Source of the DNA: an uncultured virus (IMG/VR IMGVR_UViG_3300005680_000002)
Lineage: Duplodnaviria > Heunggongvirae > Uroviricota > Caudoviricetes
Length of the DNA stretch: 64,000 nucleotides
Strand: one strand, 5' to 3'
Virus record (IMG/VR): IMGVR_UViG_3300005680_000002
Both the position numbers and the translations under genes were made by a program. This document shows, piece by piece, positions 9,141 through 53,018 of this stretch. Position 1 is the first letter of the stretch. Every line of letters begins with the position of its first letter. The notes beneath the pieces were generated by a model. That model made no database searches. It was not told the DNA's origin and saw nothing but the letters and a program-made list of their open reading frames with translations.

Positions 9141-9337
9141 TCTGCGCCCACTGCCGCCGGCCCCTCAAGCACCCCGCCGCCGAGGTCGGCCGCATGCGGT
9201 TCGGCCGCATCTGCGCGCAGCGGCTGGGCCTGATCCCAAGCCCCGAGCCGCGCGGCCTTTTCGCTGGCATGAACCCGCCCGTGAAACGGGACCCATTCAC
9301 GCAAGACCTTTTCGCCGACAAGGACCAAGCCCAATGA
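9137..9337 (+). CDS. Small zinc-finger protein
   Basis: CAHCRRPL...FGRICA; GTG after GAGGAGG. Confidence 0.6.
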   Translation: MICAHCRRPLKHPAAEVGRMRFGRICAQRLGLIPSPEPRGLFAGMNPPVKRDPFTQDLFADKDQAQ

Positions 9338-9804
9338 CCGACACCGCAACCAGGCCAACCAAGTCAAACGCCGACATCGTCTTCGAGGCGATTCAAGACC
9401 TTTTCGCCCGAGAGCAGATCGTGACCAGGGAGACACTAGCCGAGCTCACCGGGCTGAAGCTGACGACGATCGACGATCGCCTGGGCTACCTGCTGGACAA
9501 CGGCCGCATCCGACGCGTGCAGCGCGGTGTGTTTGTCCCCCTGGAGCAGCACAAGCCCGCCCGCCCGATCTCGCGCACGCTTTGCCCCGACGGCACGACC
9601 GTGCTCGAGGTAGGCGACACGGTGATGATCCTCTCCCCGCGCGAGTCCCGCATGATCGGCGAGCTGATGGCTGGCAGCAGCCAGCAGTACGCCGCGATCG
9701 AGATCGGGCACGAGGCCGCGCGGCGCAATGCGGTGCTGTCGGCGCAGATCAGCGAAGTCCGCCGCGAAGTGGCACGCATGGGGCTCAGGGCGGAAGACGA
9801 GTAA
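9334..9804 (+). CDS. Winged-HTH protein, candidate late-gene activator
   Basis: VTRETLAELTGLKLTTIDDRLGYLLDNGRIRRVQRGVF wHTH; last gene of delayed-early operon. Confidence 0.65.
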   Translation: MTDTATRPTKSNADIVFEAIQDLFAREQIVTRETLAELTGLKLTTIDDRLGYLLDNGRIRRVQRGVFVPLEQHKPARPISRTLCPDGTTVLEVGDTVMILSPRESRMIGELMAGSSQQYAAIEIGHEAARRNAVLSAQISEVRREVARMGLRAEDE

Positions 9805-22919: not shown

Positions 22920-24470
22920 ATGGCGATCGAGGTTCTGAGGGATGTGCTTCGCGGCGGCAAGTCGGCGTTCGAGTTCGGCGATCCAGCAGTGCAGGGACCG
23001 AACGACTACAACGACGCGATCGTCCCAGGCATATGGGGAGGACCAGGGGCGTCCGCGGCCAATAGGCCGCCTGGGAGCGGCTCCTATCAACCGTACCTAG
23101 TGATGTCTAGTAGCGGCGGAAACCTTATTCAGATAGCTGCAGGCTCCAGCGAATTGTACTTTCGCAGCCGAATTACGGGCTCGTGGTCTTCTTGGCACAC
23201 CGTTTATCACAACGGGAACCTGACAACGAGCGCGCTGGTGGCGCTCCTCAACGGCTGCAACCTCACGGTCACAACCTTGCGGGCCAACTCGGTGATCCGT
23301 GGAGCTGTGCGTACTGGGGCGGAAGGCATGACCCTTCTATCCGAGGTTACGCACAACCTGCACCCGGAGGACGAGGGGACGTGCGTTTTGCCGTACTACT
23401 CGAACGACCTTGCCTATCTCTTGATGCGAGGCGGGAGTGTCGCCATTACCTCCGGGCACACACCGAACTCTGGGACCGCCGGCGACCTGAATAATCTGTT
23501 CGACTGCGGAACGTTAGCGCTGGGCTTCAGCGTTTCGACGCTCACAAATCCGCCGGTTGTCTTCGAGGTCACTCCGCATCGCGTGTTTAGGTATACGAAC
23601 GCAATCGGCTTCTCCGGCGGCAACGCTTTCAGGGCAAAAAACTTCACGATCGAGATCCGAGACGCCGTAACCGGGGTCTGGACGCAAATCGCCAGCAAGA
23701 CTGATTACCCCTACGGCACTTTCACGCGTGTCGTAAACTCGGGCATAAATGGACTTGACCGAATTCGGTATTCGTTTAGCAACTTCCAGGCATCGAGTAC
23801 GTTCCGCCTCAGTCAGTTCTTTGTCATGGAATACAAGTCTGCGCTCGGGCGCGACGTGTTCGTCACGCGGGACTACAGCTCCATTCTCGGATCGCTGACG
23901 GTCGGGCATGAGAACATCACTCCGACGACAATGCTTGCCGTCAATGGTGATGCCGGCCCGTACAACGACGACGGCGGCAACTGCGGCGTGGCCAGCAAGC
24001 GCTGGTCTCAGATCTATGCGGTTTCCGGGACCATCAACACCTCCGACGCCCGGCTCAAAACCCAGGTGCGACCGCTGGAGCAGGGCGAGCTGGCCGCCGC
24101 GATGGCGCTGTCGCGCGAGATCGGCATCTTTCAGTGGCTCAATGCGCTGGCCCACAAGGGCGATGCCGCACGTCTGCACACCGGCGTGACCGTGCAGCGC
24201 GTGATCGAGATCATGCATGCCCACGGCCTCGACCCGATGCGCTACGGCATGGTGTGCCACGACCAGTGGGATGCGCGCACGGTCGAGCACCCGGCCGAGA
24301 TCGGCGAGGACGCAGACGGACGCGAGATCGAGCTCGCGCCGGCGAGAACCGAAGTTGTGCAGGAGGCCGGCGACCGCTACAGCCTGCGCTACGACCAACT
24401 GCTGGCCTTCGCGGTGCGCGGGCTCGCCGAGCGCATTGCACGGCTGGAAGGACAGAAAGATTCGGCCTAA
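22920..24470 (+). CDS. Tail fiber/receptor-binding protein with C-terminal S74 intramolecular chaperone
   Basis: N-terminal knob-like YFRSR..GSWSSW; GTINTSDARLK...YSLRYDQLL autocleavage chaperone. Confidence 0.87.
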   Translation: MAIEVLRDVLRGGKSAFEFGDPAVQGPNDYNDAIVPGIWGGPGASAANRPPGSGSYQPYLVMSSSGGNLIQIAAGSSELYFRSRITGSWSSWHTVYHNGNLTTSALVALLNGCNLTVTTLRANSVIRGAVRTGAEGMTLLSEVTHNLHPEDEGTCVLPYYSNDLAYLLMRGGSVAITSGHTPNSGTAGDLNNLFDCGTLALGFSVSTLTNPPVVFEVTPHRVFRYTNAIGFSGGNAFRAKNFTIEIRDAVTGVWTQIASKTDYPYGTFTRVVNSGINGLDRIRYSFSNFQASSTFRLSQFFVMEYKSALGRDVFVTRDYSSILGSLTVGHENITPTTMLAVNGDAGPYNDDGGNCGVASKRWSQIYAVSGTINTSDARLKTQVRPLEQGELAAAMALSREIGIFQWLNALAHKGDAARLHTGVTVQRVIEIMHAHGLDPMRYGMVCHDQWDARTVEHPAEIGEDADGREIELAPARTEVVQEAGDRYSLRYDQLLAFAVRGLAERIARLEGQKDSA

Positions 24471-38786: not shown

Positions 38787-41700
38787 ATGAGCGAAGTTGA
38801 CAAGTTTCTGGACAGCTACGAATCCCCCAAGACCAGCGGCCAGAAACCCGCCGCGCCCGCAGCGAAGCCGGCGAGTGAAGTCGATTCGCTGATGGAGACG
38901 GCGCCCCCGCAGGACAAGGGGTTTCTCGGCCACGCGCGCGACCTTGGCCTCTCCGCAGTCAAGTCGGCGATCGCCGTTCCTGAGACGCTTGTCGGCCTCG
39001 CGGACATCCCGACCGGCGGCCGTGTTGGCAAGTTCCTCGAGAACGAGGGCGGCGCCATCGGTTTCCGGCCGAAGCAGGCCAAGGAGTTCCTGGGCGAGTT
39101 CAACACCGACGCCTACAAGGACCAGCAGCGCCAGTTCCAGGAGGCTGACGGCATCCTGGACAAGACCGCCGTTGCCATTCAGAACCCGTCCCTGATTGCG
39201 AACACCGTTGTCGAGTCGGCAGCGCCGATGCTGGCCGGCGGCGTCGCGGCACGCGGGCTGCTGGCCGGCACGCGATTGGGGCAGGCTGGCGCCATTGCGG
39301 CAGAGCGCGGGGCAACTGCCGCGCAACAAGCGCAAGCCGCAGGCAGGGCAGCTGCCGCGGCCGGTGCGATCGGCGAAGGCACGATGATGGCCGGCGCGCA
39401 GGCCGAAGCCATCCGGCAGGAAACCGATGACGGGCTACTCACCGCCGGCCAATCTGGCGCCGCCGTGGCAACTGGCCTCGCCGGTACTCTCTTCGGCTAC
39501 CTGGGCGGGCGCGTAGCGCAGCGCTTTGGCCTGGGCGACGTCGACACCATGCTCGCCCGCGGCGCGAACCCGCAGCAGGTCGCCAGCGAGATCGCTGCGC
39601 TGCCGGCCAAGAGCATCCCGCGCCAAGTGGTCGAAGGCGCAATCTCCGAGGGCTTCCTCGAGGAACTGCCGCAGTCGATCTCCGAGCAGATCATTCAGAA
39701 CCTCGCCCTGGGCAAGGATTGGTCCGAGGGCGTCGAAGACGCGGCCGTAATGGGCACGCTGGCCGGCATGGCGATGGGTGGCGGTGCGTCGCTCTACAGC
39801 GGCATGACGCGCCCCGAGCCGCAGGATGGCGGGCTGCCGCCGCCGGCTGCCGGCAACGAGCCACCCGCGGCGCCGCCGCAAGGCTTCGCGCCGACTTCCG
39901 AGCGCCCGGTTATTGACGAATCCGCGCTGGGCCGTGCCGGCATCTTCCCGCCCGCGCCCGCGCCGATCATCAACGAGCGCACACTCGAGCCCGCCGCCAC
40001 GCCGTCGCAGCAGATGGGCCTTGACCCCGCTGCCGGCCCGATGTCGGCCGCCGCTGCACTTGCGGTCGATACCGGCGCATCGGCGACGATGCAGCAGGCC
40101 GCGCAGGCCGTCGACCCCGAAACCGGCGAGATCCTGGAGACTGGCGCGCGCGTCCCGGAGCAGAAGCAGGCGACCGACACGCCCGAGCAGATGCGCGAAC
40201 GCCTGGGCTTCATCGAGCAGCAGGCGCGCGTGAATGGCGGCTGGGATCGGCGCACGATCGAAGAGCGCGACCGACTGCAGGCCGAGCTCGCCAAGATCGA
40301 GCCGACTGCCGACCAATCCGGTGCTGCTACCGAAATGGTCGAGCCCGCACCGGCAATCGACGTTTCGGGGCGCACCGACGAGCAGCTCCGCGTTCTGGAG
40401 AACGCTGGGCGCGATGGCTGGCGCGAGGCGGCCGTGGCCGAGATCAAACGCCGAGCGACGCAGCAGCCGGCAGAAACGCCCGTGCCCGCGGTCGAGCCGG
40501 CCGCGCAGGCCGACGTCGAGCAGCAAGCGCCAACCGACATCGCGCAAGCGCCGGCCGCGACCTCGCCCGCCATTGAACTACCGACTCAGACGCCCGCGCC
40601 GAGCCCGCGTAGCGAATCGGCGCAGCCATCCGAGGCCATCCCGCCGGCCACGTCCGAAGGCTGGGACGGCATGACCGCCGAGCAGCGCACCGCCATCCTG
40701 ACCAAGCCGGGCGGATGGGCGACCGCCAAGGGCGGCCTCAACGTCATCGGCAAGAAGATCGCCGGCCAGAACTGGACGAAGATCAACCCGACCACCCGGG
40801 CGACCATCGAGCGCCTGATGCAAGGAGAGCAGACCGCCAATGTGCCCCAGGCTCAACAAGTGGCTCCGCAAGCGCAAGAAGCGGGCGGACAGGAAGGCGA
40901 GGCGGCAGGCGGCGAGCGTGCCGCTCCTTTAGACGCCATTGAGCAGCAGCGCATTGAAAGCGCAACAATAAGCATTTCGTTGACGCCAGAGAGTGCCGCA
41001 GCGACAAGAATTAATAGGAAGATCAACGCAGCGTCGAACCCTGCTGAAAAGGCTCGCCTTCAGGGATATTACGACTTCCTTCTCGGGGCGCCGAACAAGG
41101 CGAAGGATCAAGGGGTGCGCCTAGAGGTTTCGTATCAACAGGGGTGGAGTAAAGGGAAGAGCCTGCGGGAAAACATCCTCAAGGGCAAGCCGTGGTATGA
41201 GACAGATAAACGCCGCGATGGCAACGTCTGGAAGTGGGACATGCAACGTGAAGGCGTGCATATCGCAAGCGGGGAAGCAAAGAGCGAGAAAGCCGCTGAC
41301 CAGGCCATTGAAGACGCCAAGCTTTCCGCGATGGAGTCGCGTGGTGATTTCCAGAAAAAGCAGACATCCAATACTGGATCGGCGCAGCCCAACAAGCCGC
41401 AATCCGCCCAGCCCGCCGCACCAAGGTTCGACAGCCAATCCGGCACGACCCGCACGCAGGCCGAGCGCGATCTATGGGAGAAGGGCGCCGACAGCGAGCG
41501 CACTGAATCCGATGTAGGCGTGACCGCCGGCACGCAAGTTCGCTTCGTGTCGCTGGCCGATGCCGTGGCGACCGTGCGCGAGGCGGAACAGGCTGGCGTG
41601 GCGATGACGCCCTTCCAGGTGCATCAGGCCACCGGGATCCGCGTCGGCGATGCAGAGCGCGTCATTCGCGAGGCACAGGCACCGGCGGCGGCCGCGGCGC

Positions 41701-44700
41701 TGGCGCAGCCCTCCGCTGATGTTGCCCGCCCCGACGAGGGCAAGACGGGCAGAGCCGAAAACCCCGAGTTCACCACGCTGAAGGACCGCGACGGCAAGAC
41801 CGTCACCGTGCGCACCGCCGACCTCTCGAGCACCCGCGAGCGCATGCCCACGTTCACGAAAGAGGGCAAGCGCAGGACGGCATGGATTCACCGCGACAAC
41901 CTGGATCCGACCGGCGAGAAGCAGGCCGAGGGCGCGAAGGAGATGGCGGGGAATCCGCTCTTCAACGTCATCACGACGAAGGACGGAGGGGCGTTTGCAT
42001 CCGAGGGCGCCGCTGAGCGCGAGCTCCGCCGCCTTGGTCTGCAGGATACACACGAGGTCGCCCCGGCAAGCGAGGTCTCGTCCGGCAGCAGCGGTTTCGT
42101 TGTGCGTCGCGCCGATACCGCGAAGAACATGAAGCCCTACGTCACGCAGTTCGTAAAGGACGTGCGAGACGGCAAGGTTCAAATGGAACAGGAGCAGGAA
42201 GGCAATGAACCCGCTGCAGATGGCGCTCAGGATCAAGGCCGAGCGGAAGCAGTACGAGGCGGAAGAGGTGATTCACAACCCGGATCTGCACCAGCAGATT
42301 CTGGAAGCGTGGCGCCGCGACAGTCCGAAGATGGTCGCCCGGCTGGAGAAGCAGGGGATCCTGGACGATCTGGCGTTCGTGTGCCAGGAGCGGATGTGGC
42401 GCGCAGCGAAGGACAACCGAAGGGCCGGGCTTCCGGTGACGGACGCGCGCGAGCAGGCGGAGCGGGATCACCTGATGCTGGAGCCGGAGGAGCCGGAAGC
42501 GCTGGAGACCTGGGCGGAGTAAGCTCGCCCGCCGCAACGTCGGCGCAGGCGCGGGATCTGCACGTCGACAACCCGCTTGAGATCGTCGGCGGCTCGCCGG
42601 TTCAGCGCTTCAACCGCAACCGCGCCGCGCTCGAGCTGCTTCAGACGCTGACCGAAGAAGGTCGTCAAGCTACGCCGGAAGAGCAAAAGGTGCTCGCCGG
42701 CTACATCGGATGGGGATCGTTCGGACAGGAACTGTTCCAAGGTTCGTGGGAGCGCCCCGTCTACAAGGACGAGGGCATCTGGAAGGAGCGCGGCCAGTGG
42801 CTGCGCGACACCTTGGGCGAGTCCGCCTGGAAGTCCGCCCAGCGCTCGATCACCAACGCCCACTACACCGACCCCCCGACCGTGCTTGCCATGTGGGACA
42901 TGGTGCGCCGCATGGGCTTTGATGGCGGCAAGGTGCTGGAGCCCTCCATGGGCACCGGCAACTTCTTCAGCATGATGCCGGCCGACCTGAAGGCTCGCAG
43001 CCAACTGACCGGCATCGAGCTGGACGAGACAACGGGCGCGATCGCAAAGCAGCTTTTCCCCCGCTCGAACGTGCGGATCATGGGCTATCAGGACTCGAAG
43101 ACGCCTGACGGCTTCTACGATCTGATTATCGGGAACTGGCCCTTCGAGAACACGCCTGTTGCCGATCGCCGCTACAACAAGCTGAACCCGATGCTTCATG
43201 ACTACTTCTTCCTGAAGACCATGGATCAGGTTCGCCCAGGCGGAATCGTGATCGGCATCACGTCCGCAGGCTCGATGGACAAGCAGAACACCACGATTCG
43301 CCGCGAGCTTGCCAAGCAGGCCGAGCTGGTGGCGGCAATCCGCCTGCCGTCCGGTGCATTCGAGGAGTACGCCGGCACGAAGGTGGTGACCGACATCGTG
43401 GTCCTGCGCAAGCGCCCGCAGCGCCTCGTCGCTACCCCGAGCGACGCGACTTGGGTGGAGACGGGCGACTACAAAACGCCAGCCGGCGAGACGATCAAGG
43501 TCAACCGCTACTACCTGGACAACCCGCAGAACATCATCGGCACGCTGGACTTTGGCAGCGGCACAAACACGTTCCGCGCCGGCATGATCGTGCGCCGCCC
43601 CGAGAACATGGCCGAGCAGTTGCAGAAGGCGATTGAACTCGTGCCGCAGGGCGCCATGCTGCCGCGCGGCAAGGTCGATCACCTGACCTACTACGCCAAC
43701 GAGACCGGCGAGCGCCACGGCGCGCTGGCGCTCGTGAACGATCGGCTGATGATCGCTGTCGGTGACCAGTTGGTCGAGGCCAACGAGGCGCGCAAATACG
43801 CGCTGAAGGACGCCAAGAAAACCGCCGTGCGCGAGCAGCAATTGCGCGCCGCAATCGACCTTCGCAAGAAGCACGCCGCGCTCGTGGATGCCGAGCGCGG
43901 AGGCCGGCCGGCCAACGATGCGCGCAAGGCGCTGCGGGGCGCATACGACGCCTTCGTGAAGGCGCACGGCGGACTGCGTGACTCGTTCGCGCTCGAGTAC
44001 CTGGAAAGGATCAACGACCCGTTCTTCGCTGAGCTCGCCGCCCTGGAGAACGACGACGGCACGCCGGCTGCGGTCATGGAGCGCAGCACTACGCGAGGGC
44101 GCCGCACGCTCGATAACCCGAGCGTGCGCGACGCCTACGTGCTCGCGCGCAACCAGTCGGTGAATCCGAGCGTGGCCGAGGTCGCGCGCCTCGCCGGCAA
44201 GTCCGAGCAAGCCGTCAAGGCCGAACTGCTGGGCAGCGGCGCCGTGTTCGAAGCGCCGAATGGCGACGTGGTGCCGTCCGACATCTACCTGTCGGGCAAC
44301 GTCCGCCAGAAGCTGCGCGAGGCTCAGGCCGCGCTGGACGATGGCAACGCCGCGATGAGTGCAAACATCGCCGCGCTCAAGGAGGTCATGCCCGAGGATG
44401 TGCCGTACTTCAACATCGAGACGCAGTTCGGCGCGACCTGGGTGCCGAATGAAGCCTACGCGCAGTACATCGCGCACATGCTGGGGCAATCCAGCCCGAA
44501 GGGCATTGAGGTCTCGTTCCGCGCCGGCCGCTGGAAGGTGAAGATGGAGCCGGGGCTGAGCCGAATCCCCGAGGCCGCCGCCAACTACGGCACGCCCGGG
44601 TATCCGTTCAGCCGGCTGGTGCAGGCAGCCATCAGCAATCAGGTGCTGCGCCTGACTTCGAAGGACGAGAACGGCAACGACGTTTACGACGCAGAGCGCA

Positions 44701-47700
44701 CCGAAGAGGCCAATGCGCGGATCGCCAAGATCCGCGAGGACTTCGGCGCGTGGCTGTGGAGCGACCCGGAGCGCCGACAGGATCTGGAGCGCGAATACAA
44801 TGAGGCGCGCAACGCCTGGGCGACGCCAACCTATGACGGCTCCTTCCTGACTTTCGAGGGCATGGCGCTCACGCTGGGCAACGGCGCTTTCCAGCTTCGT
44901 CAGCACCAAGTCAATGCGATCTGGCGCGCGATCGTGAACCGGCGCAGCATCAACGCGCACGAGGTCGGCACCGGCAAGACCTTCACGATGGGCGGCATCG
45001 CCGTCGAGTCGCGGCGCTACGGCATCGCCAAGAAACCGATGCTGCTGGCGCACAACGCCAACAGCGCGACCGTGGCGGCTGAGATTCGGATGATGTACCC
45101 GTCGGCGCGCGTGCTCTACGTCGACAACCTTCAGGGCGACAAGAAGGAAATTCGCCTGCGGCAGATCGCCAACGACGATTGGGACGTTATCGTCGTTCCG
45201 CACTCGCTCATCAGCAACCTTGCCTTGCGCGAGGAAACGATGATGCGGATGGCCGAGGACGACATCAAGGCGCTGGAGGCCGAGTTCTTCGATGCCGCCC
45301 GCGAGGACAACATCAACCCCGAAACGATCGACCTCGACGACGACGAGGACATCGCCAAGATTCGCTCCGTCACCGCCAAGGAGCTCGCCAAGGCCCGCAA
45401 GCGCATCATCGAGAACATCAAGAAGCAGGCGCAGAAGTCGAGCAAGGAAGGCGCGATCGCCTTTGAAGACCTGGGCGTCGACATGATCCTGGTGGATGAG
45501 GCGCACGAGTTCAAGAAGCCGCCCATCGTCACCCGCATGAAGATGAAGGGGCTCAATACGCAGGTCTCGAACCGCTCGATTGCGCTGCAGTTCCTGACCC
45601 GCTACGTGCGCCAGATGAACAACGGCGGCAACGTCCACACCTTCACCGGAACGCCGATCACAAACACGATCACCGAGATTTACCACCAGATGCGGTACGT
45701 GATGGAGGCCGAAATGGAGCAGGCAACCATCGCAGATTGGGATGGCTGGTTCGGCTCGTTCGCCGCCGAGGTCCAGGATGTCGAGCTCACGGCGGCCGGC
45801 GACTACGAAATGGTCTCGCGCCTTGCGGGCTTCGTGAACGTGCCTGAGTTGCGCGCGATGGTCGGGCAGTACATGGACACGGTGTTCGCCGAGGACATGC
45901 CGGAGATGCGCCCGCGCAAGGTCAATGGCAAGGAGCTCTCAGACTCCGCGCTGACCGAGGCCGAGCGCGCCGAGCTGTTGAACGGGCGCACCGAGGGCGC
46001 CAAGGACCGCCCCTACAAGAAGGTCATCAACGACTCGGCCGATATGACCGCCGAGCAGATGGGGATCTTCACCCGGCTCCAGCAGTACGCGCGCGAGTGG
46101 CGGGCGGCCACCGGCAAGCAGAAGAAGGAATGGATGCGGGCGGGCGATGTGCGCTCGCCGATCATCACCGAAGGGATCGCGAACAAGGCGAGCTTCGATG
46201 TGCGCTTGCTGGACGACGAGGGCTTTGCAGGGCAAGAGGGCAGGGTGCCCGACGAGCCGACGAGCAAGGCCAGCCGCGTCGTCAAGAACGTGCTCGAGAT
46301 CTACAACAGCCACGCGAACGCCAATCAAGTCATCTTCTCCGAGAACGGATTTGGCAAGAGGGCCACCCGCAGCGCGGGCGTTCATGACGGCGAGAAGCAG
46401 AAATTTACCGTGCCCGTCTTCGCCACGATGCACGACATCGTTGAGCGACTGGTTCAGGGCGGCATTCCGCGCGAGCAGATCGCTATCGTGGATGGCTCGA
46501 CCAGCAAGGAGCGTCGCAAGGAAATCGCCGAGGCGATGAACGCCAGCACGATCCGCGTCGTGATCGGCTCGACGGACACGCTGGGCGTGGGCGTGAACAT
46601 GCAGCGCAATCTGCGCGCCATGCACCACGTCGACGCGCCCTACATGCCGGGCGAACTGGAGCAGCGCAACGGCCGCGGGCTGCGCCAGGGCAACCAGTGG
46701 AACACGGTGCTCGAGTACCGCTACATGACCGATCGGCTGGACGGCAAGCGCTGGCAGATCCTCGCGGTCAAGCAGCGCTTCATCAACGCGTTCATGAAGG
46801 CTGCCGCCGGCACCCGGGTGATCGAAGGCGAGGCCGCAGCCGACGAGCAGAGCGACATCCTGGAGTCCTTCTCCGAGGCGGCCGGCGATCCGCGGATTCT
46901 GCAACGCGTCAAGATGCAGAAGAAGCTGGAGACCCTGAACCGCAAGGAGCGGATGTACACGCAGGGCATCGCCGACATGCGCCGCCAGGAGCGCAGCAGC
47001 GCGGAACTCGCCGATCGCCTGACTCGCGAGCTCAAGCAATTGGCCGACAGTCGCACGCAAGCGAACGTCGAGGCGCTGATCGCAAGCCAGCAGCAGGCGT
47101 TTGCGGCAACCATCGACGGCACGACCTACGACACCCGCAAGGATGCCGCCGATGCGCTGCAGGCGTTCATCGAGGCGAACGTTCGCATCGGCGACAGCCT
47201 GAAGACGGTCGGCGAGTATGCCGGCCATTCGCTGCGCATTGAGTGGCCGCGGCACATGGACGCCCCGGTCACGCAGATCGACGCCTTCGGGCAGGAGTTC
47301 GCCGGCAAGGGCATTGCGGGCGCCGAGGCGAAGATGCGCAACTTCCCGTCGGTCATCGAGAACAAGGCCAAGCGCCGGGACATGGAGCGCTCAACCGCCG
47401 AGAACATGCGCGCGGCGATGAATCAGCCCTTCGCCCAGGCGGCGGACCTGGAGCGAATCACCAAGCAGCTTCAGGATCTGGAAAAGGATCTCGAGATCAA
47501 CCCGGTCCCACCACCGGCATGGCTACGCCAGGGTGCGCCGATCGACTCCGAGGTCCACCGCAACAAGCGGCCGTACATCGTGACCGGCCACCGCTACAGC
47601 AAGGAGGGCTGGTTCGTCATCGCCGAGGACGACAAGGGCACAGTCCTGATCCCGTACATGGAGGCGACCGACGAGGTTGGCATGCCCATGTACGAAGAGC

Positions 47701-50700
47701 GCGAGTTTGTGCCGCCGGTCGTGATTGAGAAGGAGAAGGAGGGCGCCGCGCCCGCAGATGCGCCGGCCGATGTTGTTGTCGACCGCGCCGCGCAGTTCGC
47801 CCCCGCCAACCCGCTGCGCAACGCCGATGGCACCTTCGCGCGCCAGGATCCGGCTGGCGACTCGCTGGCTTTCTCGGCGACGTTGCCGCGCGATCGCAAC
47901 GCAGTGCGGATCGGCATCACCGAAAAGGGGCTGGTGCGCGCGATGCGCCTGCAGTTCGATGGCCTCGCCGACGTCACCAGCAAGCTGCTGGAGCGCGGCA
48001 GGGCCGGCAAGCGCGGGGGCGTGATCGTGGTCGGAACGGCCGACAATGCCGAGATCGGCCGCATTGTGGCCGAGCGGACCGGGCGCAAGCTGGATTCGAC
48101 CATGCGCAAGTTCTCGAGCGCTGGGCGGCTCAACGGTTTCTACGACCCCAAGACCGGCCTGACCTTCCTCGTGGCGCCGAACCTGAACCCGGTCACAGCC
48201 ACCGCGGTGATGCTGCACGAGATGATGCACGGCCAGCAGCGCCAGAAGATCGACGCGCGCGCGCTGGAAATGGTCCGCAACCGGCACGGCCTGAAAGACG
48301 AGGATCTGCGCGCCTTCCTCGATCGCGTGATGCTGCGCATGATCGGCGCGGGCGAAGTGGGCAATGCCGCAGAAGCCTCCGCCTACATCGTGGAGCAAGC
48401 GGTGATCGAAGGCCGTAGCGCCGGCTACACCTTCGCCGACGGCGCCTTCATGCAGTGGGTGGACGCGAAGATTGGCAAGCGCGTGGGCGACTTCCTGCGC
48501 TCGTTCGCCGGCATGATCCGCACCTGGATGCTGCGCAACGGGCTGGGCGCGAAGGCGATGACCGTGGATGACTTCGTGGGCTACGCCATGGCCGGGCTTG
48601 ACCGGGCGGCCGCGGGCGAGGTGCGCGGGCGGGCGAATGCTCAGGCGAGCATCGGATCGCGCGCCCCGCAATCCGAAGCCTTCCGCCGCTGGTTCGGTGA
48701 CTCGAAGGTCGTCGATGAGCGGGGGCAGCCGCTCGTGGTGTATCACGGCACCCAAGCGGACTTTTCTGTTTTCGATGCCAGTCGTTTAGGTGAAACAACA
48801 TCAGCAAAAAGCGCAAAAAATGGATTCTTTTTCGCAAGCAACCCCGACGTTGCAAGTACGTATGCGTTTCTTGATCGCGAAAATATTCGCAGAGCAAATG
48901 AAATAAAGCTGCTCATCAAGGAAAACATTGAGGCTGGTCTTGTCCTAAGAAGGAAGGATAAAGAAAAAGCCCTTGACGCCATCGAAGATAAAGATGGCTT
49001 CAGGAGAAATCTGCTCGCAAGGCAAGAAGAAATTGAAAGGCGTATATCAGAACTAAAAAAAGAGCAGCAAGACGCCGACAAAAAAGACCTCTATGAATGG
49101 GATTCTCTTGCTGAAGATAGCGATAGGGAGCGAAAATTTCTCGCCACGCGAATTAATGGAAGTGTTGTCTACCCGGTGTATCTGTCAATCCAAAACCCGC
49201 TATACCACGAGTTTTCTGGTGGTACGTATCGAGATGAGACATACGCATCTCTAGTTGAAAGGGCGATCAAAAACGGGAATGATGGGCTAGTGCTGCGCAA
49301 TACGACAGACTCTGCAACAGGTCATGCGCACTCATCTCCTACGACTGACATATTCGTTGCCTTCCGCCCAGAGCAGATCAAGTCCGCCGTGGGCAACAAT
49401 GGCGACTACGATCCGGACAACGACAACATCCTGTTCAGCCGCTCAGTCGGCGACGCGCCTGCACAAGAAGCGCAGCGCGTGCAGTCTGCCATCGAGGGCA
49501 AGACGCTGATCGAAGCGGCGCAGTTCTTGACGCGCTCGAAAGACGGCGCGAAAGCGGCCGTTGCGCAGAAGGTGCTGGAGAAGTTGCAGCGCCTGGAGAA
49601 AGCCGGCGTTACGCTCGACCTGAAGATTGTCCACCGCGGCGACATGGCCCCGGCGAGCATGGTGAATGCGCGCGGCTACACGGAGACCGGATTCGATGAG
49701 AAGGGCCGCGACATCGTTGTGTGGCTCAACGGCGCGGACGTGACCGGCAAGGTCGGCACGGAAGAAGAGGTGTTGCTGCATGAACTGGTGCATGCCGCCA
49801 CGGCCGGCATGGTGTTCCATGGCACGCAGACACCGGGCTCGCTGGCCGGCAAGCATGCGCGTGACCTGATGGCCGTGACCGATGCGATTGCCGAGCACAT
49901 CCGCAAGCGCTTCGACGCCGCAGACGCCGGCAAGGCAACGCTGACCGAGTTCGAGCAGGACATGCGCGAGGGCGCGAACAACGCCTTCCGCAGCGATGAC
50001 GAGGTGCTGGCCTGGGCGCTGTCGAGCGGCGAGGCGCAAGCCTACCTCGAGACGATCCCCTATCGCTCGGGCTCGATGTGGTCGAACTTCGTTCAGGCGG
50101 TGCGCAACCTGCTGGGCTTGAGCGCGCGCAACGACACTGCGCTGTCTGAGGTGCTGCGCGTGGCCGAGCGCATCCTGACCGACGACGCCCCGAATGCCGG
50201 GCGCGCGGCGTTCTGGCACAAGCGCAACATCAGGATGGCGCAGCAGCAGATACGCGGCAGCATTGTGCAGACTGCCGAGCGTGGCGCAGATGACTTGCAG
50301 TTCAGCCGATCCGGCCTCGAAAACGCACAGCAGGCCGCCAAAAACATCGGCGCTGGCCTGAAGGCGATCACGGTGCAGGACGTGAAGAGGGCCGGCAAGC
50401 ACAGGCTGACCGACTGGCTCAAGTTGGGCCTGCAGTTCCTTGGCCGTCGGCAGATCGTGGATGTATACGGCGACGTGCTGCCGCTGGCCGAGTACGATCG
50501 GCTCGCTGCGCAGATGGAAGCCGACAAGAACGATGTGGGTGCGGCTGCCGACGAGCTCGCCCGCCGCTGGGGAAAGCTGCCCGATGAGGGCAAGTTGGCC
50601 GACTTGATGCACGACGCCACCTTGGCGCAGATCGACGCAGATTCCGCCGTCGAGTACGTGCCAGGCGACGACCTTGCCAAGAGCCGAGCGCTCAAGGCGC

Positions 50701-53018
50701 AGTTCGGCCAGCTCTCGACCGAAGCGCAGAAGGTTTATCGCGAGGCGCGCGACCACTACCGCAAGCATCACGCTGCGGTGCGGCAGGCGATCATCGATCG
50801 CATCATGCGCAGCGAGTTGCGGGAAGAGCGCCGCGCCGAGCTGCTGAAGCGCATGGACGCCGACTTCTTCAAAGCCATCAAGGGCGTGTACTTCCCGCTG
50901 TCGCGCTTCGGTCAATACGTCGTGGTGACGAAGGACGATGCCGGCAAGGTGGTGAGCGTGTCGCGCGCCGAGACCATGGCCGAGGCCGAGGCCATGCGCG
51001 CGGAGATGGTGAAGGCGTTCCCGGCCAGGGATGGGTATCAGGTCGGGCGCGTGACACTGAGCAAGGAGTTCATCGCCGGCCGCGACATGGTGGGCCGCGG
51101 GTTCATGACCGAGCTCTACGAGGCGCTGGACGAGCAGGGGCTGGATCCGCGTGTGCAGGCCGAGCTCGAAGACACCCTGGGGCAGCTCTACCTGTCGTCG
51201 CTCCCCGATCTGTCGTGGGCGAAGCACGGCATCCACCGCAAGGGAACGCCGGGCTTCTCGAGCGATGCGCGGCGCGCGTTCGCGCAGAACACGTTCCACG
51301 GCGCGCGCTACCTCGCCAAGCTGAAGTACGGCGACCAGATGCAGACCGAACTGGATCGGATGCAGAAGCACGTCGATGAGATGGCACCGATCGAGGGGTT
51401 CGATCAGCCGGCGGCGCAGCGTGTCGTGGATGAGATGAACAAGCGCCACGAAGCGACGATGAACCCCAAGGGGAACCCGCTCTCGACTGCGCTCACGAGC
51501 TTCGGCTTTGTCTACTACCTGGGCATTTCGCCGGCCGCTGCGGTGGTGAACCTGTCGCAAACGCCGCTGGTTGCCTACCCGGTGATGGGCGCAAAGTGGG
51601 GGTTCAGGAAGGCGGGCGCCGCGCTGATGGCGGCTTCGGCTGAAGTGGTGGAAGGCAAGAACGACCTTCGCGCCGTCCTGGCTGACCGGCTGAAGAACGA
51701 GCAAGACCCGAAGGCGAAGCGCAAGCACCAGGACGAGATCGCCGCCTACGACGAGGCGGTGCGAACCGGCGTGATTGACGTGACGATGGCCCACGACCTT
51801 GCCGGCATCGCGCAGGGCGAGGACGCCAAGGTGATGTGGAAGATCCGCCCGGTGATGCGGCTGGCGAGCTACCTGTTCCACCACGCCGAGCGCTTCAACC
51901 GTCAAGCGACGTTCCTGGCTTCCTACCGGCTGGCGCGCGACGCTGGCGCCAAGCACGACACCGCCTATTCGCAGGCGGTGAAGGCGACTTACGACGGGCA
52001 CTTCGACTACTCGACCGGCAACCGGCCGCGGGTGATGCAGGGCAACGTCGCCAAGGTAGTGCTGCTGTTCAAGCAGTACGCGCAGAACATGATCTACACG
52101 CTCGCGCGCAACGCCTACCAGTCAGTCAAGGGCGAGTCGCCCGAGGTTCGGCGCGAGGCGCGCAAGGTGTTCGGGGCGCTGATGACCACGCACGCGGCCG
52201 CTGCGGGCGTGCTGGGCCTGCCGATGGTGGGAACGCTGCTGACGCTGGCATCCGCGCTGGGCGGCAGCGACGATGAGCCGTGGGCCGCTGAGGTTGCGCT
52301 ACGCAACATGCTGGCCGACACATTCGGGACGAAGCCGGCCGAGGTGATCGCGAAGGGCTTTTCGCGCCTGACGCCGTGGGACATTTCCGGCCGCGTCGGC
52401 CTGGACAAACTGCTGCTGCCGGACGTGAATGAGAGCCTGGAGGGGCAGCGCTGGGCCGAATCGTTCGCTACCGCCATGCTTGGCCCGGTGATCGGCATGG
52501 GGGTGAATGCCGCCAAGGGCGCGCAGAAGATGGCAGATGGAGACTACGGCCGCGGGCTGGAGGACATGCTGCCGATCTTCGCGCGCAACCCGATCAAGGC
52601 GTACCGCCAGTACAGCGAAGGCGAAGTCGATCGCACGGGCGTGGTCATCAAGGACGAAGTGAGCTTGGCTGGCGTGCTGGGGCAGGCGTCCGGTTTCTCG
52701 CCGTCCGAGATCCGCTTGGCCTTCGAGGGGCGCAGCGCAGTGATGAGCGCCGATCGACGACTCAACGAGCGCCGCCAGGATCTGATGACGCAGTTCGCTC
52801 GGGCTGCGATGGATCAGGACCAGGACGGCATGACCGAGGCGCGCAGCGCAATCGCCGAGTTCAACAAGGTCAATCCCGGGCGCCGGATCACGCCGCCGCA
52901 GATGTGGCAGAGCGTGCGCAACCGCGAGCGCCGGATACGCGATGCAGACCAAGGAGTCTATCTGCCGCGAACTCGGCGCGACGTGATGGACGAAGGGCGG
53001 TTTGCCGAGGTTGGTTGA
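38787..53018 (+). CDS. darB: Giant DarB-like polyvalent virion protein (4743 aa): N6-MTase, SNF2 helicase, two HExxH peptidase-like motifs, ART-like domain, PLxRFG domain
   Basis: EPSMGTGNF (~42939), GNWPF (~43131), HEVGTGKT (~44958), VDEAHEFK (~45492), HEMMH (~48216), WFGDSKVVD..GQPLVVYHGT (~48690), HELVH (~49779), YFPLSRFG (~50890). Confidence 0.9.
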   Translation: MSEVDKFLDSYESPKTSGQKPAAPAAKPASEVDSLMETAPPQDKGFLGHARDLGLSAVKSAIAVPETLVGLADIPTGGRVGKFLENEGGAIGFRPKQAKEFLGEFNTDAYKDQQRQFQEADGILDKTAVAIQNPSLIANTVVESAAPMLAGGVAARGLLAGTRLGQAGAIAAERGATAAQQAQAAGRAAAAAGAIGEGTMMAGAQAEAIRQETDDGLLTAGQSGAAVATGLAGTLFGYLGGRVAQRFGLGDVDTMLARGANPQQVASEIAALPAKSIPRQVVEGAISEGFLEELPQSISEQIIQNLALGKDWSEGVEDAAVMGTLAGMAMGGGASLYSGMTRPEPQDGGLPPPAAGNEPPAAPPQGFAPTSERPVIDESALGRAGIFPPAPAPIINERTLEPAATPSQQMGLDPAAGPMSAAAALAVDTGASATMQQAAQAVDPETGEILETGARVPEQKQATDTPEQMRERLGFIEQQARVNGGWDRRTIEERDRLQAELAKIEPTADQSGAATEMVEPAPAIDVSGRTDEQLRVLENAGRDGWREAAVAEIKRRATQQPAETPVPAVEPAAQADVEQQAPTDIAQAPAATSPAIELPTQTPAPSPRSESAQPSEAIPPATSEGWDGMTAEQRTAILTKPGGWATAKGGLNVIGKKIAGQNWTKINPTTRATIERLMQGEQTANVPQAQQVAPQAQEAGGQEGEAAGGERAAPLDAIEQQRIESATISISLTPESAAATRINRKINAASNPAEKARLQGYYDFLLGAPNKAKDQGVRLEVSYQQGWSKGKSLRENILKGKPWYETDKRRDGNVWKWDMQREGVHIASGEAKSEKAADQAIEDAKLSAMESRGDFQKKQTSNTGSAQPNKPQSAQPAAPRFDSQSGTTRTQAERDLWEKGADSERTESDVGVTAGTQVRFVSLADAVATVREAEQAGVAMTPFQVHQATGIRVGDAERVIREAQAPAAAAALAQPSADVARPDEGKTGRAENPEFTTLKDRDGKTVTVRTADLSSTRERMPTFTKEGKRRTAWIHRDNLDPTGEKQAEGAKEMAGNPLFNVITTKDGGAFASEGAAERELRRLGLQDTHEVAPASEVSSGSSGFVVRRADTAKNMKPYVTQFVKDVRDGKVQMEQEQEGNEPAADGAQDQGRAEAVRGGRGDSQPGSAPADSGSVAPRQSEDGRPAGEAGDPGRSGVRVPGADVARSEGQPKGRASGDGRARAGGAGSPDAGAGGAGSAGDLGGVSSPAATSAQARDLHVDNPLEIVGGSPVQRFNRNRAALELLQTLTEEGRQATPEEQKVLAGYIGWGSFGQELFQGSWERPVYKDEGIWKERGQWLRDTLGESAWKSAQRSITNAHYTDPPTVLAMWDMVRRMGFDGGKVLEPSMGTGNFFSMMPADLKARSQLTGIELDETTGAIAKQLFPRSNVRIMGYQDSKTPDGFYDLIIGNWPFENTPVADRRYNKLNPMLHDYFFLKTMDQVRPGGIVIGITSAGSMDKQNTTIRRELAKQAELVAAIRLPSGAFEEYAGTKVVTDIVVLRKRPQRLVATPSDATWVETGDYKTPAGETIKVNRYYLDNPQNIIGTLDFGSGTNTFRAGMIVRRPENMAEQLQKAIELVPQGAMLPRGKVDHLTYYANETGERHGALALVNDRLMIAVGDQLVEANEARKYALKDAKKTAVREQQLRAAIDLRKKHAALVDAERGGRPANDARKALRGAYDAFVKAHGGLRDSFALEYLERINDPFFAELAALENDDGTPAAVMERSTTRGRRTLDNPSVRDAYVLARNQSVNPSVAEVARLAGKSEQAVKAELLGSGAVFEAPNGDVVPSDIYLSGNVRQKLREAQAALDDGNAAMSANIAALKEVMPEDVPYFNIETQFGATWVPNEAYAQYIAHMLGQSSPKGIEVSFRAGRWKVKMEPGLSRIPEAAANYGTPGYPFSRLVQAAISNQVLRLTSKDENGNDVYDAERTEEANARIAKIREDFGAWLWSDPERRQDLEREYNEARNAWATPTYDGSFLTFEGMALTLGNGAFQLRQHQVNAIWRAIVNRRSINAHEVGTGKTFTMGGIAVESRRYGIAKKPMLLAHNANSATVAAEIRMMYPSARVLYVDNLQGDKKEIRLRQIANDDWDVIVVPHSLISNLALREETMMRMAEDDIKALEAEFFDAAREDNINPETIDLDDDEDIAKIRSVTAKELAKARKRIIENIKKQAQKSSKEGAIAFEDLGVDMILVDEAHEFKKPPIVTRMKMKGLNTQVSNRSIALQFLTRYVRQMNNGGNVHTFTGTPITNTITEIYHQMRYVMEAEMEQATIADWDGWFGSFAAEVQDVELTAAGDYEMVSRLAGFVNVPELRAMVGQYMDTVFAEDMPEMRPRKVNGKELSDSALTEAERAELLNGRTEGAKDRPYKKVINDSADMTAEQMGIFTRLQQYAREWRAATGKQKKEWMRAGDVRSPIITEGIANKASFDVRLLDDEGFAGQEGRVPDEPTSKASRVVKNVLEIYNSHANANQVIFSENGFGKRATRSAGVHDGEKQKFTVPVFATMHDIVERLVQGGIPREQIAIVDGSTSKERRKEIAEAMNASTIRVVIGSTDTLGVGVNMQRNLRAMHHVDAPYMPGELEQRNGRGLRQGNQWNTVLEYRYMTDRLDGKRWQILAVKQRFINAFMKAAAGTRVIEGEAAADEQSDILESFSEAAGDPRILQRVKMQKKLETLNRKERMYTQGIADMRRQERSSAELADRLTRELKQLADSRTQANVEALIASQQQAFAATIDGTTYDTRKDAADALQAFIEANVRIGDSLKTVGEYAGHSLRIEWPRHMDAPVTQIDAFGQEFAGKGIAGAEAKMRNFPSVIENKAKRRDMERSTAENMRAAMNQPFAQAADLERITKQLQDLEKDLEINPVPPPAWLRQGAPIDSEVHRNKRPYIVTGHRYSKEGWFVIAEDDKGTVLIPYMEATDEVGMPMYEEREFVPPVVIEKEKEGAAPADAPADVVVDRAAQFAPANPLRNADGTFARQDPAGDSLAFSATLPRDRNAVRIGITEKGLVRAMRLQFDGLADVTSKLLERGRAGKRGGVIVVGTADNAEIGRIVAERTGRKLDSTMRKFSSAGRLNGFYDPKTGLTFLVAPNLNPVTATAVMLHEMMHGQQRQKIDARALEMVRNRHGLKDEDLRAFLDRVMLRMIGAGEVGNAAEASAYIVEQAVIEGRSAGYTFADGAFMQWVDAKIGKRVGDFLRSFAGMIRTWMLRNGLGAKAMTVDDFVGYAMAGLDRAAAGEVRGRANAQASIGSRAPQSEAFRRWFGDSKVVDERGQPLVVYHGTQADFSVFDASRLGETTSAKSAKNGFFFASNPDVASTYAFLDRENIRRANEIKLLIKENIEAGLVLRRKDKEKALDAIEDKDGFRRNLLARQEEIERRISELKKEQQDADKKDLYEWDSLAEDSDRERKFLATRINGSVVYPVYLSIQNPLYHEFSGGTYRDETYASLVERAIKNGNDGLVLRNTTDSATGHAHSSPTTDIFVAFRPEQIKSAVGNNGDYDPDNDNILFSRSVGDAPAQEAQRVQSAIEGKTLIEAAQFLTRSKDGAKAAVAQKVLEKLQRLEKAGVTLDLKIVHRGDMAPASMVNARGYTETGFDEKGRDIVVWLNGADVTGKVGTEEEVLLHELVHAATAGMVFHGTQTPGSLAGKHARDLMAVTDAIAEHIRKRFDAADAGKATLTEFEQDMREGANNAFRSDDEVLAWALSSGEAQAYLETIPYRSGSMWSNFVQAVRNLLGLSARNDTALSEVLRVAERILTDDAPNAGRAAFWHKRNIRMAQQQIRGSIVQTAERGADDLQFSRSGLENAQQAAKNIGAGLKAITVQDVKRAGKHRLTDWLKLGLQFLGRRQIVDVYGDVLPLAEYDRLAAQMEADKNDVGAAADELARRWGKLPDEGKLADLMHDATLAQIDADSAVEYVPGDDLAKSRALKAQFGQLSTEAQKVYREARDHYRKHHAAVRQAIIDRIMRSELREERRAELLKRMDADFFKAIKGVYFPLSRFGQYVVVTKDDAGKVVSVSRAETMAEAEAMRAEMVKAFPARDGYQVGRVTLSKEFIAGRDMVGRGFMTELYEALDEQGLDPRVQAELEDTLGQLYLSSLPDLSWAKHGIHRKGTPGFSSDARRAFAQNTFHGARYLAKLKYGDQMQTELDRMQKHVDEMAPIEGFDQPAAQRVVDEMNKRHEATMNPKGNPLSTALTSFGFVYYLGISPAAAVVNLSQTPLVAYPVMGAKWGFRKAGAALMAASAEVVEGKNDLRAVLADRLKNEQDPKAKRKHQDEIAAYDEAVRTGVIDVTMAHDLAGIAQGEDAKVMWKIRPVMRLASYLFHHAERFNRQATFLASYRLARDAGAKHDTAYSQAVKATYDGHFDYSTGNRPRVMQGNVAKVVLLFKQYAQNMIYTLARNAYQSVKGESPEVRREARKVFGALMTTHAAAAGVLGLPMVGTLLTLASALGGSDDEPWAAEVALRNMLADTFGTKPAEVIAKGFSRLTPWDISGRVGLDKLLLPDVNESLEGQRWAESFATAMLGPVIGMGVNAAKGAQKMADGDYGRGLEDMLPIFARNPIKAYRQYSEGEVDRTGVVIKDEVSLAGVLGQASGFSPSEIRLAFEGRSAVMSADRRLNERRQDLMTQFARAAMDQDQDGMTEARSAIAEFNKVNPGRRITPPQMWQSVRNRERRIRDADQGVYLPRTRRDVMDEGRFAEVG
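42205..42522 (+). CDS. Nested out-of-frame gene (105 aa) inside the giant ORF
   Basis: AGGAG/AGGAAG upstream; third positions almost all G/C in this frame, whereas the giant frame here is A/T-ending and low-complexity. Confidence 0.7.
   Translation: MNPLQMALRIKAERKQYEAEEVIHNPDLHQQILEAWRRDSPKMVARLEKQGILDDLAFVCQERMWRAAKDNRRAGLPVTDAREQAERDHLMLEPEEPEALETWAE

Follow-up and report, generated by a model that had tools for sequence, protein, structure and literature searches.

The giant gene and the ORF nested within it

The window analysed here, a stretch of 64,000 nucleotides from an uncultured virus of the Caudoviricetes (IMG/VR record IMGVR_UViG_3300005680_000002), contains phage structural genes for terminase, portal, major head protein and tail fibre, together with a giant polyvalent (DarB-like) gene on the plus strand (38787..53018). 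This 14-kb ORF encodes 4,743 aa and was characterized by Pfam searches. Matches above the cut-off were obtained for Helicase_C (residues 2542-2635, 37.6 bits), ART-PolyVal (residues 3310-3429, 77.5 bits) and LPD39 (residues 3863-4037, 125.9 bits), and matches below it for N6_Mtase (residues 1380-1546, 18.0 bits against 20.4) and ResIII (residues 2035-2245, 20.9 bits against 22.5). As judged from these domains, the giant is a typical polyvalent protein that combines several disparate conflict-related domains in a phage setting. By analogy with gp69 of phage JC1, its product is probably virion-associated, in a phage of about 62 kb.

A second ORF of 105 codons (42205..42522, plus strand), present as the initial annotation had described and running from an ATG to a TAA, is wholly embedded in the giant gene on the same strand and in frame +1. 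It encodes a protein of 105 aa (12.4 kDa, pI 5.1) with five predicted helices followed by an acidic disordered tail (residues 94-105). AF2 gives a confident five-helix bundle for it (pLDDT 79.3, pTM 0.66). The nested ORF sits just before the methyltransferase module, as had also been proposed. This module begins at 42555 with the conserved giant-frame motif DLHVDNPLEIVGG (42555..42593, plus strand; alignment and translation), 11 codons past the small gene's stop, and it is here that conservation of the giant resumes. Over the 150 aa downstream, 31 aligned sequences share a mean pairwise identity of 64%.

Base composition distinguishes the two readings. In the giant frame, GC at codon positions 1/2/3 is 0.67/0.46/0.82 over the entire giant and 0.87/0.73/0.37 over 42204-42522. 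The same interval read in the small frame gives 0.73/0.37/0.87, which is an ordinary coding signature. The G/C-rich third positions claimed for the small frame and the A/T-ending codons claimed for the giant frame are thus both present (0.87 versus 0.37). Scanning the giant with a 180-nt sliding window revealed a single strong GC-phase flip, at 42117-42626, and among the 16 stop-to-stop ORFs of at least 70 aa in the +1 frame of the giant a coding-type profile (0.66/0.41/0.88) was found in the nested one only. The small ORF is a real gene, which confirms the original observation. That 42205-42522 is a functional protein-coding gene belongs to a best explanation that we regard, taken whole, as likely.

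A Shine-Dalgarno (SD)-like purine run, AGGAGCAGGAAGG (42190..42202, plus strand), ends 2 nt 5’ of the ATG, and the ribosome binding site quoted in the initial annotation, ACAGGAGCAGGAAGGCA-ATG, is found at 42188-42207. The duplex energy of the upstream run with the anti-SD motif is -6.6 kcal/mol. Start codons of the nested loci were picked by eye from the alignment, which places an ATG at the N-terminus of the small protein in the window as well as in 29 distinct nested loci; in three loci (L006, L017 and L034) a small-frame stop lies one codon 5’ of it. In the window, the T of this ATG forms the third base of an Asn codon in the giant frame, so that loss of the start would be compatible with an unaltered giant. 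Energies of -5 or lower occur at 24 of 29 nested starts versus 448 of 2,317 (19%) other +1-frame ATGs in the same giants (Mann-Whitney p=5e-11, a value that overstates independence because the loci share a phylogeny). Among the matches listed, alternative upstream sequences in metagenome contigs join at 42202-42207, and two that join at 42204 both terminate in an AGGAG-type run. A conserved ATG and SD-like complementarity are predicted to provide the small gene with translation start signals of its own.

Conservation and selection across the overlap

The giant frame crosses the overlap (42204..42521, plus strand; residues 1140-1245) in 106 codons that read as a G/A/R/D/S/P-rich linker. The initial annotation had described a G/A/R/P/S-rich linker, and 82% of these residues are indeed G/A/R/P/S/D as compared to 46% giant-wide. 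The linker is a spacer joining the giant's N-terminal region to the methyltransferase module.

Of 42 related loci, 36 keep the giant frame free of stops across the small ORF, some of them with a G+C content of 42-48%. To assess this openness, the small protein was held fixed and its synonymous codons were redrawn from the giant's own codon usage in 5,000 draws. For the window, the giant frame stayed open in 0.6% of draws (P=0.006), and among 30 sequences the probability ranged from 0.000 to 0.19, with independence again overstated by the shared phylogeny of the loci. The frame is therefore open more than chance allows. The basis of this openness can be seen at the small gene's third positions, where T is absent ahead of codons beginning AA, AG or GA: in these giant-stop-prone contexts T occurs at 0 of 996 positions, versus 194 of 2,265 elsewhere.

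Substitution rates were compared in 11 sequence pairs. Changes that alter the small protein and are silent in the giant occur at 0.074 per site (67 changes at 909 sites), and changes that are silent in the small frame and alter the giant at 0.338 per site (222/657). Changes altering both frames occur at 0.098 per site (153/1,557) and those silent in both at 0.421 (8/19). The small protein is under purifying selection, with altering changes about 4-5 times slower than silent ones. The amino acid sequence of the giant across the overlap is nearly free to drift, since its rate of 0.338 approaches the 0.421 of changes silent in both frames, and is selected only for openness. Over the overlap, pairwise amino acid identity averages 45.7% for the small protein and 30.4% for the giant (465 pairs), and the small frame is the more conserved in 99.8% of these pairs.

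Natural variants show the same pattern. Among the metagenome matches listed, 12 of 19 variants within the ORF fall at small-frame third positions and 16 of 18 downstream of it at giant-frame third positions, and all five indels among these matches are frame-restoring (one +3 and two compensated +1/-1 pairs). The suggestion that both frames are under selection holds, although unequally: the small frame is selected for its sequence and the giant frame only for staying free of stops.

One alternative is that the ORF is an artefact, either a shadow ORF that arose by chance at high genomic G+C or the product of a frameshift introduced during sequencing or assembly. At 65% G+C, the window does carry long spurious ORFs, for example one of 1,072 aa in antisense (42468..45686). 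However, the same two-frame layout recurs in 36 of 42 loci that were assembled independently, with G+C as low as 42%, and also in the genome of a cultured phage; the small frame is under purifying selection; four further runs carry the ORF with only frame-restoring indels among the matches listed; and no other +1-frame ORF of the giant has the coding signature. We consider an artefact of either kind extremely improbable. The sequencing frameshift, and with it a split giant, that the initial annotation had raised against its own reading is ruled out by these loci together with the resampling, the substitution rates and the indels.

Relatives of the small gene and the upstream X module

Homologues of the small protein were found as 155 called proteins at E<=1e-3 among 156 candidates, one of them named as an NCBI hypothetical protein. 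The expectation that gene callers would miss the gene is only partly correct: it is contradicted by these 155 called homologues and borne out by one cultured relative, GenBank MT491208, in which the same nested arrangement is present and unannotated. Cultured relatives that infect Pseudomonas include the phages vB_PaeM_USP_25 and _18. The family comprises 294 clusters at 50% identity, the 150 listed all being 65-275 aa in length, and the motifs QERMW and TDAREQAE are invariant across 18 sequences. Conservation of the nested arrangement spans Alpha-, Beta- and Gammaproteobacteria, and genome bins labelled Opitutia and Geobacter contain it as well.

In relatives, the nested gene is preceded by a segment of the giant designated here as the X module. 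Among 82 related giant genes bearing this module, 56 carry a nested small ORF, of which 34 belong to this superfamily and 22 to a second, unrelated family. A comparison with hhalign shows types 1 and 2 of the superfamily to be homologous (probability 92.5%, E=4.7e-7). In all 56 cases the small ORF is in frame +1 and lies immediately 3’ of X, ahead of the next module. A nested ORF of the two modelled families was absent from 25 of the 82 X-bearing loci, some of which are truncated. Several of these 25 contain other +1 ORFs with a coding signature. The nested +1-frame arrangement is a general one, shared by many related phages. An unfused state, with gene A, the small gene and gene B separate, was not found in the loci examined. 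A free-standing copy of the small gene occurs at L026 with no giant gene, so the small protein is not strictly dependent on the giant. The ORF upstream of that copy had been considered as the C-terminal part of a type I R protein (subunit); this assignment was dropped, Pfam and NCBIfam giving no match.

Searches with the window's small protein (P0001) gave no match in Pfam (E<=10), PADLOC or NCBIfam, in the PDB by sequence profile (E<=10) or in the PDB by Foldseek (E<=0.001). PHROGs returned only phrog_35483 (E=0.0074), of unknown function, and the best match in BFVD was Q8W6J4_2, a piece of a long viral protein (E=0.15, TMq 0.62). A wide VIA-align search ranked 2apl_A (PG0816) highest, with Z 6.1 and an rmsd of 3.1 over 67 residues, which is below the level advised for helical bundles and was taken only as a lead. 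In Atlas no score reached 0.9; one neighbour cluster, at a score of 0.80, has TnpV on 11% of its members. Type-2 nested relatives matched TnpV (PF14198) weakly, at E=0.0077 and 0.049 (16.6 and 14 bits); with every match below the 27-bit gathering cut-off, membership was rejected and the similarity kept as a lead. A literature search found no description of genes nested in DarB-like or polyvalent genes, and the arrangement seems to be previously undescribed.

The window's own giant has no canonical X module detectable by the X-module HMM. A putative remnant, NMKPYVTQFVKDVRDGK (42126..42176, plus strand, giant frame), weakly resembles the last X helix (blastp E=0.34). Without a recognisable full X in this giant, the case for a partnership with X is drawn from relatives. 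Psychrobacter proteins of 374-390 aa (L027 and L030) have the small domain fused in frame to X and are encoded between an MmeI-type restriction-modification gene and Zorya genes. In proteins of the P0123 type (406-412 aa), one type-2 and one type-1 domain share a single frame with two segments of X, and at L083 such a gene lies directly 3’ of hsdR-hsdS-AAA_13-hsdM. A decayed copy (L035) adjoins hsdM, hsdS and hsdR. Fused forms are restricted to two lineages, outside phage giants. A complex prediction for X and the small protein (the L003 pair; alignments A3 and A4) scored 0.01, which has no bearing either way on binding. Taken together, these fusions and neighbourhoods point to a link between the small gene, the upstream giant module and restriction-modification, and not specifically to the methyltransferase-helicase part for which the initial annotation had proposed a chaperone, inhibitor or packaging partner.

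Proposed function and comparison with known systems

According to the proposed mechanism, 42205 would serve ribosomes as an internal start on the late mRNA of the giant, and the 12-kDa protein would be made when and where the giant is. Contigs from an RNA library (run X15) cover this stretch and are uninformative on transcription, strand or start. The small gene would be the older reading and the giant's linker the secondary one. The linker may have arisen when flanking genes fused across the small gene, or when an in-frame domain was shifted out of frame. The description of the small gene as overprinted inside the giant probably has the direction reversed: the native codon signature is that of the small frame, whose family counts 294 clusters, and the giant's reading is of low complexity. 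The exclusive use of frame +1 could be explained in that a synonymous change to the small gene would there suffice to remove any giant-frame stop.

We tentatively propose, at somewhat less than even confidence, that the small protein serves the giant anti-restriction protein as an accessory or partner and works with the upstream X module, since in two bacterial lineages X and the small domain form one polypeptide beside restriction-modification genes. The small protein might instead be independent, exchangeable cargo, for example a TnpV-like anti-defence or regulatory protein that does not serve the giant; the nesting would be no less real. Three small-ORF types fill one slot in different giants, and variant contigs switch at the ATG, one of them, read by eye, running on into the N-terminal part of a type-2 small ORF. 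Replacement of one small-gene family by another at a single position fits an independent cassette as well as it fits a partner. The free-standing copy at L026, the lack of a canonical X in the window's giant by HMM and the chromosomal copies in defence and restriction-modification neighbourhoods also agree with cargo. Two independent in-frame fusions to the giant's X module and the constant position of all 56 nested ORFs argue against it, and we regard cargo as rather unlikely. In that reading, the giant linker would be a tolerated insertion site giving late co-expression.

The same fusions bear on another possibility, a programmed +1 frameshift near 42205 that would yield, instead of or beside the product of internal initiation, a truncated giant N-terminus ending in the small domain at 42522. 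A single polypeptide does include both X and the small domain in Psychrobacter and in P0123/L083, and in prfB, +1 shifting is stimulated by an SD-like run located 5’ of the shift site. However, a frameshift product has no need of the ATG that is kept in the window and 29 other loci, and in L006, L017 and L034 the small frame is closed one codon before it. No zero-frame stop or slippery codon was seen when the junction was inspected by eye, and the fused forms are confined to the two lineages outside phage giants. Such a frameshift is quite improbable.

Returning to internal initiation and an accessory role, these observations can be combined into one broader reading, which we offer as a conjecture falling a little short of probable. 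Nested +1 small genes would be a general design of phage giant polyvalent (DarB-like) genes, with at least two unrelated families, one of several sub-types, serving as exchangeable linker cassettes. The giant would read through in the one frame where all stops are synonymously removable, the small proteins, once released, would partner the X module in anti-restriction, and bacteria would have captured fusions of X and small domain into restriction-modification and defence islands. If this is true, neighbouring genes could be welded into one injected polyprotein with the intervening small genes retained.

As an example of long same-strand gene overlap in a DNA phage, the locus is clear and statistically strong, with an unusual division of labour in which one frame specifies a protein and the other merely the lack of stops. 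It suggests a route by which giant polyvalent proteins could form from neighbours without deleting what lies between, and would account for the sole use of frame +1. It also alerts annotators to a gene class missing from at least one deposited phage record, and the X-module fusions beside restriction-modification systems may offer a handle on DarB-like accessory factors.

The closest structural parallel is Rz/Rz1 of lambda and many other phages, in which a small gene with its own start lies fully inside a larger one on the same strand and in another frame, and both products are made. Rz1 of lambda is likewise in the +1 frame. Unlike Rz/Rz1, where both readings are functional parts of one two-subunit machine, the host reading here is a variable spacer in a 4,743-aa multidomain protein, and the nested gene comes from a family of hundreds of clusters, its slot being filled by different families in different phages. 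In the overprinted genes of small viruses, as outlined in PMC8227390, two frames of one DNA stretch are also under asymmetric constraint. Classical overprinting yields a novel protein from the new frame; in the present case it is the host's linker that seems to be new and unconstrained, and the gene embedded in it seems to be older and is widely distributed.

In function, the nearest comparison is with the Dar system of P1. According to PMC9144972, a large virion protein of methyltransferase/helicase type shields phage DNA from type I restriction, P1 DarB requires the help of several small proteins whose genes lie close by (DdrA, DdrB, Hdf and others), and the DarB-like gp69 of phage JC1 was detected in virions by mass spectrometry. 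The giant has N6_Mtase and ResIII matches just below their cut-offs and a Helicase_C match that passes, and chromosomal relatives of the small gene adjoin type I restriction-modification genes. The Dar accessory genes of P1 are, as far as is known, separate genes, unlike the nested small gene. TnpV (PF14198), of unknown function, is similar to the small protein in size and helical character. Finally, the giant is a typical member of the polyvalent proteins of Iyer et al. 2017 (PMC5512222), combining ART-PolyVal, LPD39, methylase and helicase modules. It differs from that description, as far as a term search of its main text goes ('overlapping', 'frameshift', 'alternative frame' and 'TnpV' do not occur there), in carrying a gene nested within its linker.

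Composition and family of the nested frame

The window is a phage genome, with genes for a large terminase (11554–13179), a portal (13195–15459), a major head protein (16628–17923) and a tail fibre (22920–24470), and with RecE/RecT-like genes on the opposite strand. The giant ORF (38787–53018; 4,743 aa) has Pfam matches to N6_Mtase, ResIII, Helicase_C, ART-PolyVal and LPD39, and is therefore a DarB-like 'polyvalent protein'. The small gene nested within it is real. Exactly as the initial annotation had it, the ORF at 42205–42522 begins with ATG, ends with TAA, encodes 105 aa in the giant's frame +1 and is preceded by ACAGGAGCAGGAAGGCA. The compositional flip noticed there was confirmed by GC content per codon position, which in the giant frame is 0.67/0.46/0.82 over the whole giant and 0.87/0.73/0.37 over 42204–42522, a normal coding profile when read in the small frame. 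A sliding scan along the entire giant gave a single strong flip, at the small ORF, and only this one of the 16 +1-frame ORFs of at least 70 aa within the giant has a coding profile. Over the overlap, G/A/R/P/S/D make up 82% of the giant's 106 residues, compared to 46% in the entire giant protein.

Two other features of the giant were observed. At 48717–49376 the codon-position GC signal drifts weakly and broadly towards frame +1 (score ≤0.25), and no corresponding ORF with a coding profile was found there. The 1,072-aa antisense ORF at 42468–45686 (minus strand) showed no gene-like sign that we noticed and is the usual shadow ORF of 65% G+C sequence.

Searches of predicted proteins identified homologues of the small protein in 155 of 156 candidates (E≤1e-3), mostly of 97–136 aa and with identities down to about 56%. 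When a set of 1.84 billion cluster representatives was scanned in full with an HMM, 294 clusters matched, and the 150 matches listed are all 65–275 aa. The motifs QERMW and TDAREQAE are invariant across 18 diverse members. An AlphaFold2 model built from a 55-row alignment has five helices and a disordered acidic tail (pLDDT 79.3, pTM 0.66).

Selection on the two frames and the small gene's start

DNA was retrieved for 42 loci (25 viral and 17 genomic), and substitutions in 11 moderately diverged pairs were classed by what they do in each frame. Substitutions silent in the small frame but altering the giant occurred at 0.338 per site (222/657), those altering the small protein but silent in the giant at 0.074 (67/909), those altering both at 0.098 and those silent in both at 0.421 (8/19). 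The small protein is therefore under purifying selection, and the giant's sequence over the overlap drifts near the silent rate. Within the overlap the small-frame proteins have a mean pairwise identity of 45.7% and the giant-frame readings one of 30.4%; the giant's next 150 aa are 64% identical. When contigs of four public sequencing runs (coded X5, X8, X12 and X15) were aligned to 41900–42900, 12 of the 19 variants listed inside the small ORF fell at small-frame third positions and 16 of the 18 listed downstream at giant-frame third positions. The five indels listed comprise one +3 and two +1/-1 pairs, the members of each pair lying within 6 bases.

The giant frame is kept open. In 36 of the 42 loci no stop codon interrupts the frame one base upstream of the small one over the length of the small ORF; the enclosing ORFs span 1,500 to >4,000 codons, and these loci include some of only 42–48% G+C (L003, L004, L013 and L031). 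Synonymous codons were redrawn from each giant's usage, with the small protein fixed, for the window and 29 distinct nested loci; seven loci that duplicate or nearly duplicate others were excluded (L001, L002, L004, L018, L033, L034 and L037). An open giant frame resulted from 0.6% of the window's draws and from 0.00–19% over the set. The mechanism of this openness is visible in the sequence, because a T at a small-frame third position before a codon starting with AA, AG or GA would create a giant-frame TAA, TAG or TGA, and T occurs there in 0 of 996 cases compared to 194 of 2,265 elsewhere. Between the small stop codon and the conserved DLHVDNPLEIVGG motif, which opens the giant's methylase module, the window contains no giant-frame ATG, GTG or TTG, so that ribosomes must translate the overlap to get to the downstream modules. 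The proposal that both frames are under selection thus holds in that both are maintained, the giant frame as an open spacer only, and of the two readings the small frame is probably the original one.

An ATG is present at the aligned N-terminus in all 30 sequences, with starts picked by eye from the alignment. Predicted pairing of the 17 upstream bases with the anti-Shine-Dalgarno motif reaches ≤-5 kcal/mol in 24 of 29 nested starts and in 448 of 2,317 other +1-frame ATGs of the same giants (p=5e-11, a figure that overstates independence since the loci are related). A stop codon closes the small frame one codon ahead of the ATG in three loci. The conserved ATG, the Shine-Dalgarno pairing and the upstream stops make internal initiation more likely than a +1 frameshift product.

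Module X, exchange and possible function

In 18 of 28 nested loci (E≤1e-3) a segment of the giant frame, module X, precedes the nested gene by 10–300 codons; the window's own giant has only a short, weakly matching remnant. Through this module 82 further loci were fetched, some being one contig from two collections. A member of the same superfamily was found in 34, an unrelated third family in 22 (and in 12 of the 39 first loci), the in-frame fusion in one (L083) and none of these in 25. Nested type-2 ORFs occupy the slot after module X (L048:8323-8640, L059:8344-8577, L066:8383-8607, L068:5429-5758 and L078:8296-8580), carry the pattern HWKQFQP...LFPPEE and are homologous to the window's type-1 protein (hhalign probability 92.5%, E=4.7e-7); the HMMs of the two types also match each other. 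Third-family ORFs (among them L050:8278-8778, L052:881-1291, L065:4370-4756, L075:9880-10266, L080:9220-9597 and L046:8242-8682) encode apparently unrelated proteins of about 125–165 aa with an N-terminus like MHQVPASVWNQIA. Other giant polyvalent genes enclose them in frame +1, where they show a proper coding GC profile and occupy a G/R/D/S-rich linker ahead of a helicase module. The 56 nested ORFs all use frame +1, in agreement with the genetic code: in this phase, whether the giant frame meets a stop is decided by synonymous third positions of the small gene alone; in the other, we infer, Met and common Leu codons before A would make TGA unavoidable.

Giants without the two modelled families hold other +1-frame ORFs whose GC profiles are of the coding type (L047:9397-9729, L049:9499-9858, L070:3830-4183, L072:1274-1699 and L073:7398-7742); these may represent additional nested families.

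At two clusters of positions, 42109–42121 and 42202–42207, contigs from other samples end or change to a different sequence. These clusters suggest recombination boundaries around the last ~90 bases (42115–42204) of the giant's N-terminal region, one of which would fall exactly at the nested ATG. Among the alternative upstream sequences listed, both of those joining at 42204 finish with an AGGAG-type run ahead of the ATG, and one X5 contig departs just past the ATG into what is, by eye, the N-terminus of another small-ORF type (cf. L059). The contig switches at the ATG indicate that the small gene behaves as an exchangeable cassette bounded at its start codon. Such behaviour would suit an independent, exchangeable cargo gene, as would L026:1093-1494, a free-standing 133-aa copy with a C-terminal extension that adjoins umuC in a Pseudomonas genome bin; there the giant frame is closed and the upstream ORF has no family match. 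We consider this function for the small protein rather unlikely.

The remaining non-nested loci (six of 42 in all) point to restriction-modification. L035 holds a decayed fragment adjoining a complete type I R-M system. In four Psychrobacter loci the small domain forms the C-terminus of a larger protein, intact in two species (374–390 aa; L027:5149-6321 and L030) and split in two (L028 and L029), whose residues ~180–267 are homologous to module X, in one frame with the small domain. This gene is flanked by an MmeI-type R-M gene (L027:2211-4988, minus strand) and by Zorya-like MotB_plug/OmpA (L027:8942-9673) and EH_Signature (L027:9670-11100) genes. A search for longer proteins gave a second fused class (P0123–P0126, 323–412 aa) with a type-2 domain, two X segments and a type-1 domain, all in frame. 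On the metagenomic contig L083, hsdR-hsdS-AAA_13-hsdM directly precedes a co-oriented 428-aa fusion of this layout (6001–7284), after which comes a truncated polyvalent-gene piece (8356–9471) containing a family-3 ORF (8915–9301). Two lineages therefore have module X and the small domain in a single polypeptide, in both cases adjoining restriction-modification genes. The small protein could thus assist the giant anti-restriction protein as an accessory tied to its X module, a role to which we give slightly less than an even chance.

Comparison with known systems

A literature search returned nothing relevant on genes nested in DarB-like or polyvalent genes, and a term search of the polyvalent-protein paper (PMC5512222) did not find 'overlapping', 'frameshift' or 'TnpV'. 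Weak, sub-threshold matches of type-2 nested ORFs to Pfam TnpV, and an Atlas neighbour, may serve as leads only. Among 50,697 GenBank phages, the small gene occurs only in Pseudomonas phages vB_PaeM_USP_25 and USP_18, at 82% identity; record MT491208 labels the 14.7-kb giant 'hypothetical protein' and leaves the nested gene unannotated. In the portions consulted of a study of phage JC1, a 4,515-aa DarB-like virion protein is described without a nested gene, and DarB of P1 is stated to require small accessory proteins and to act against type I restriction (PMC9144972).
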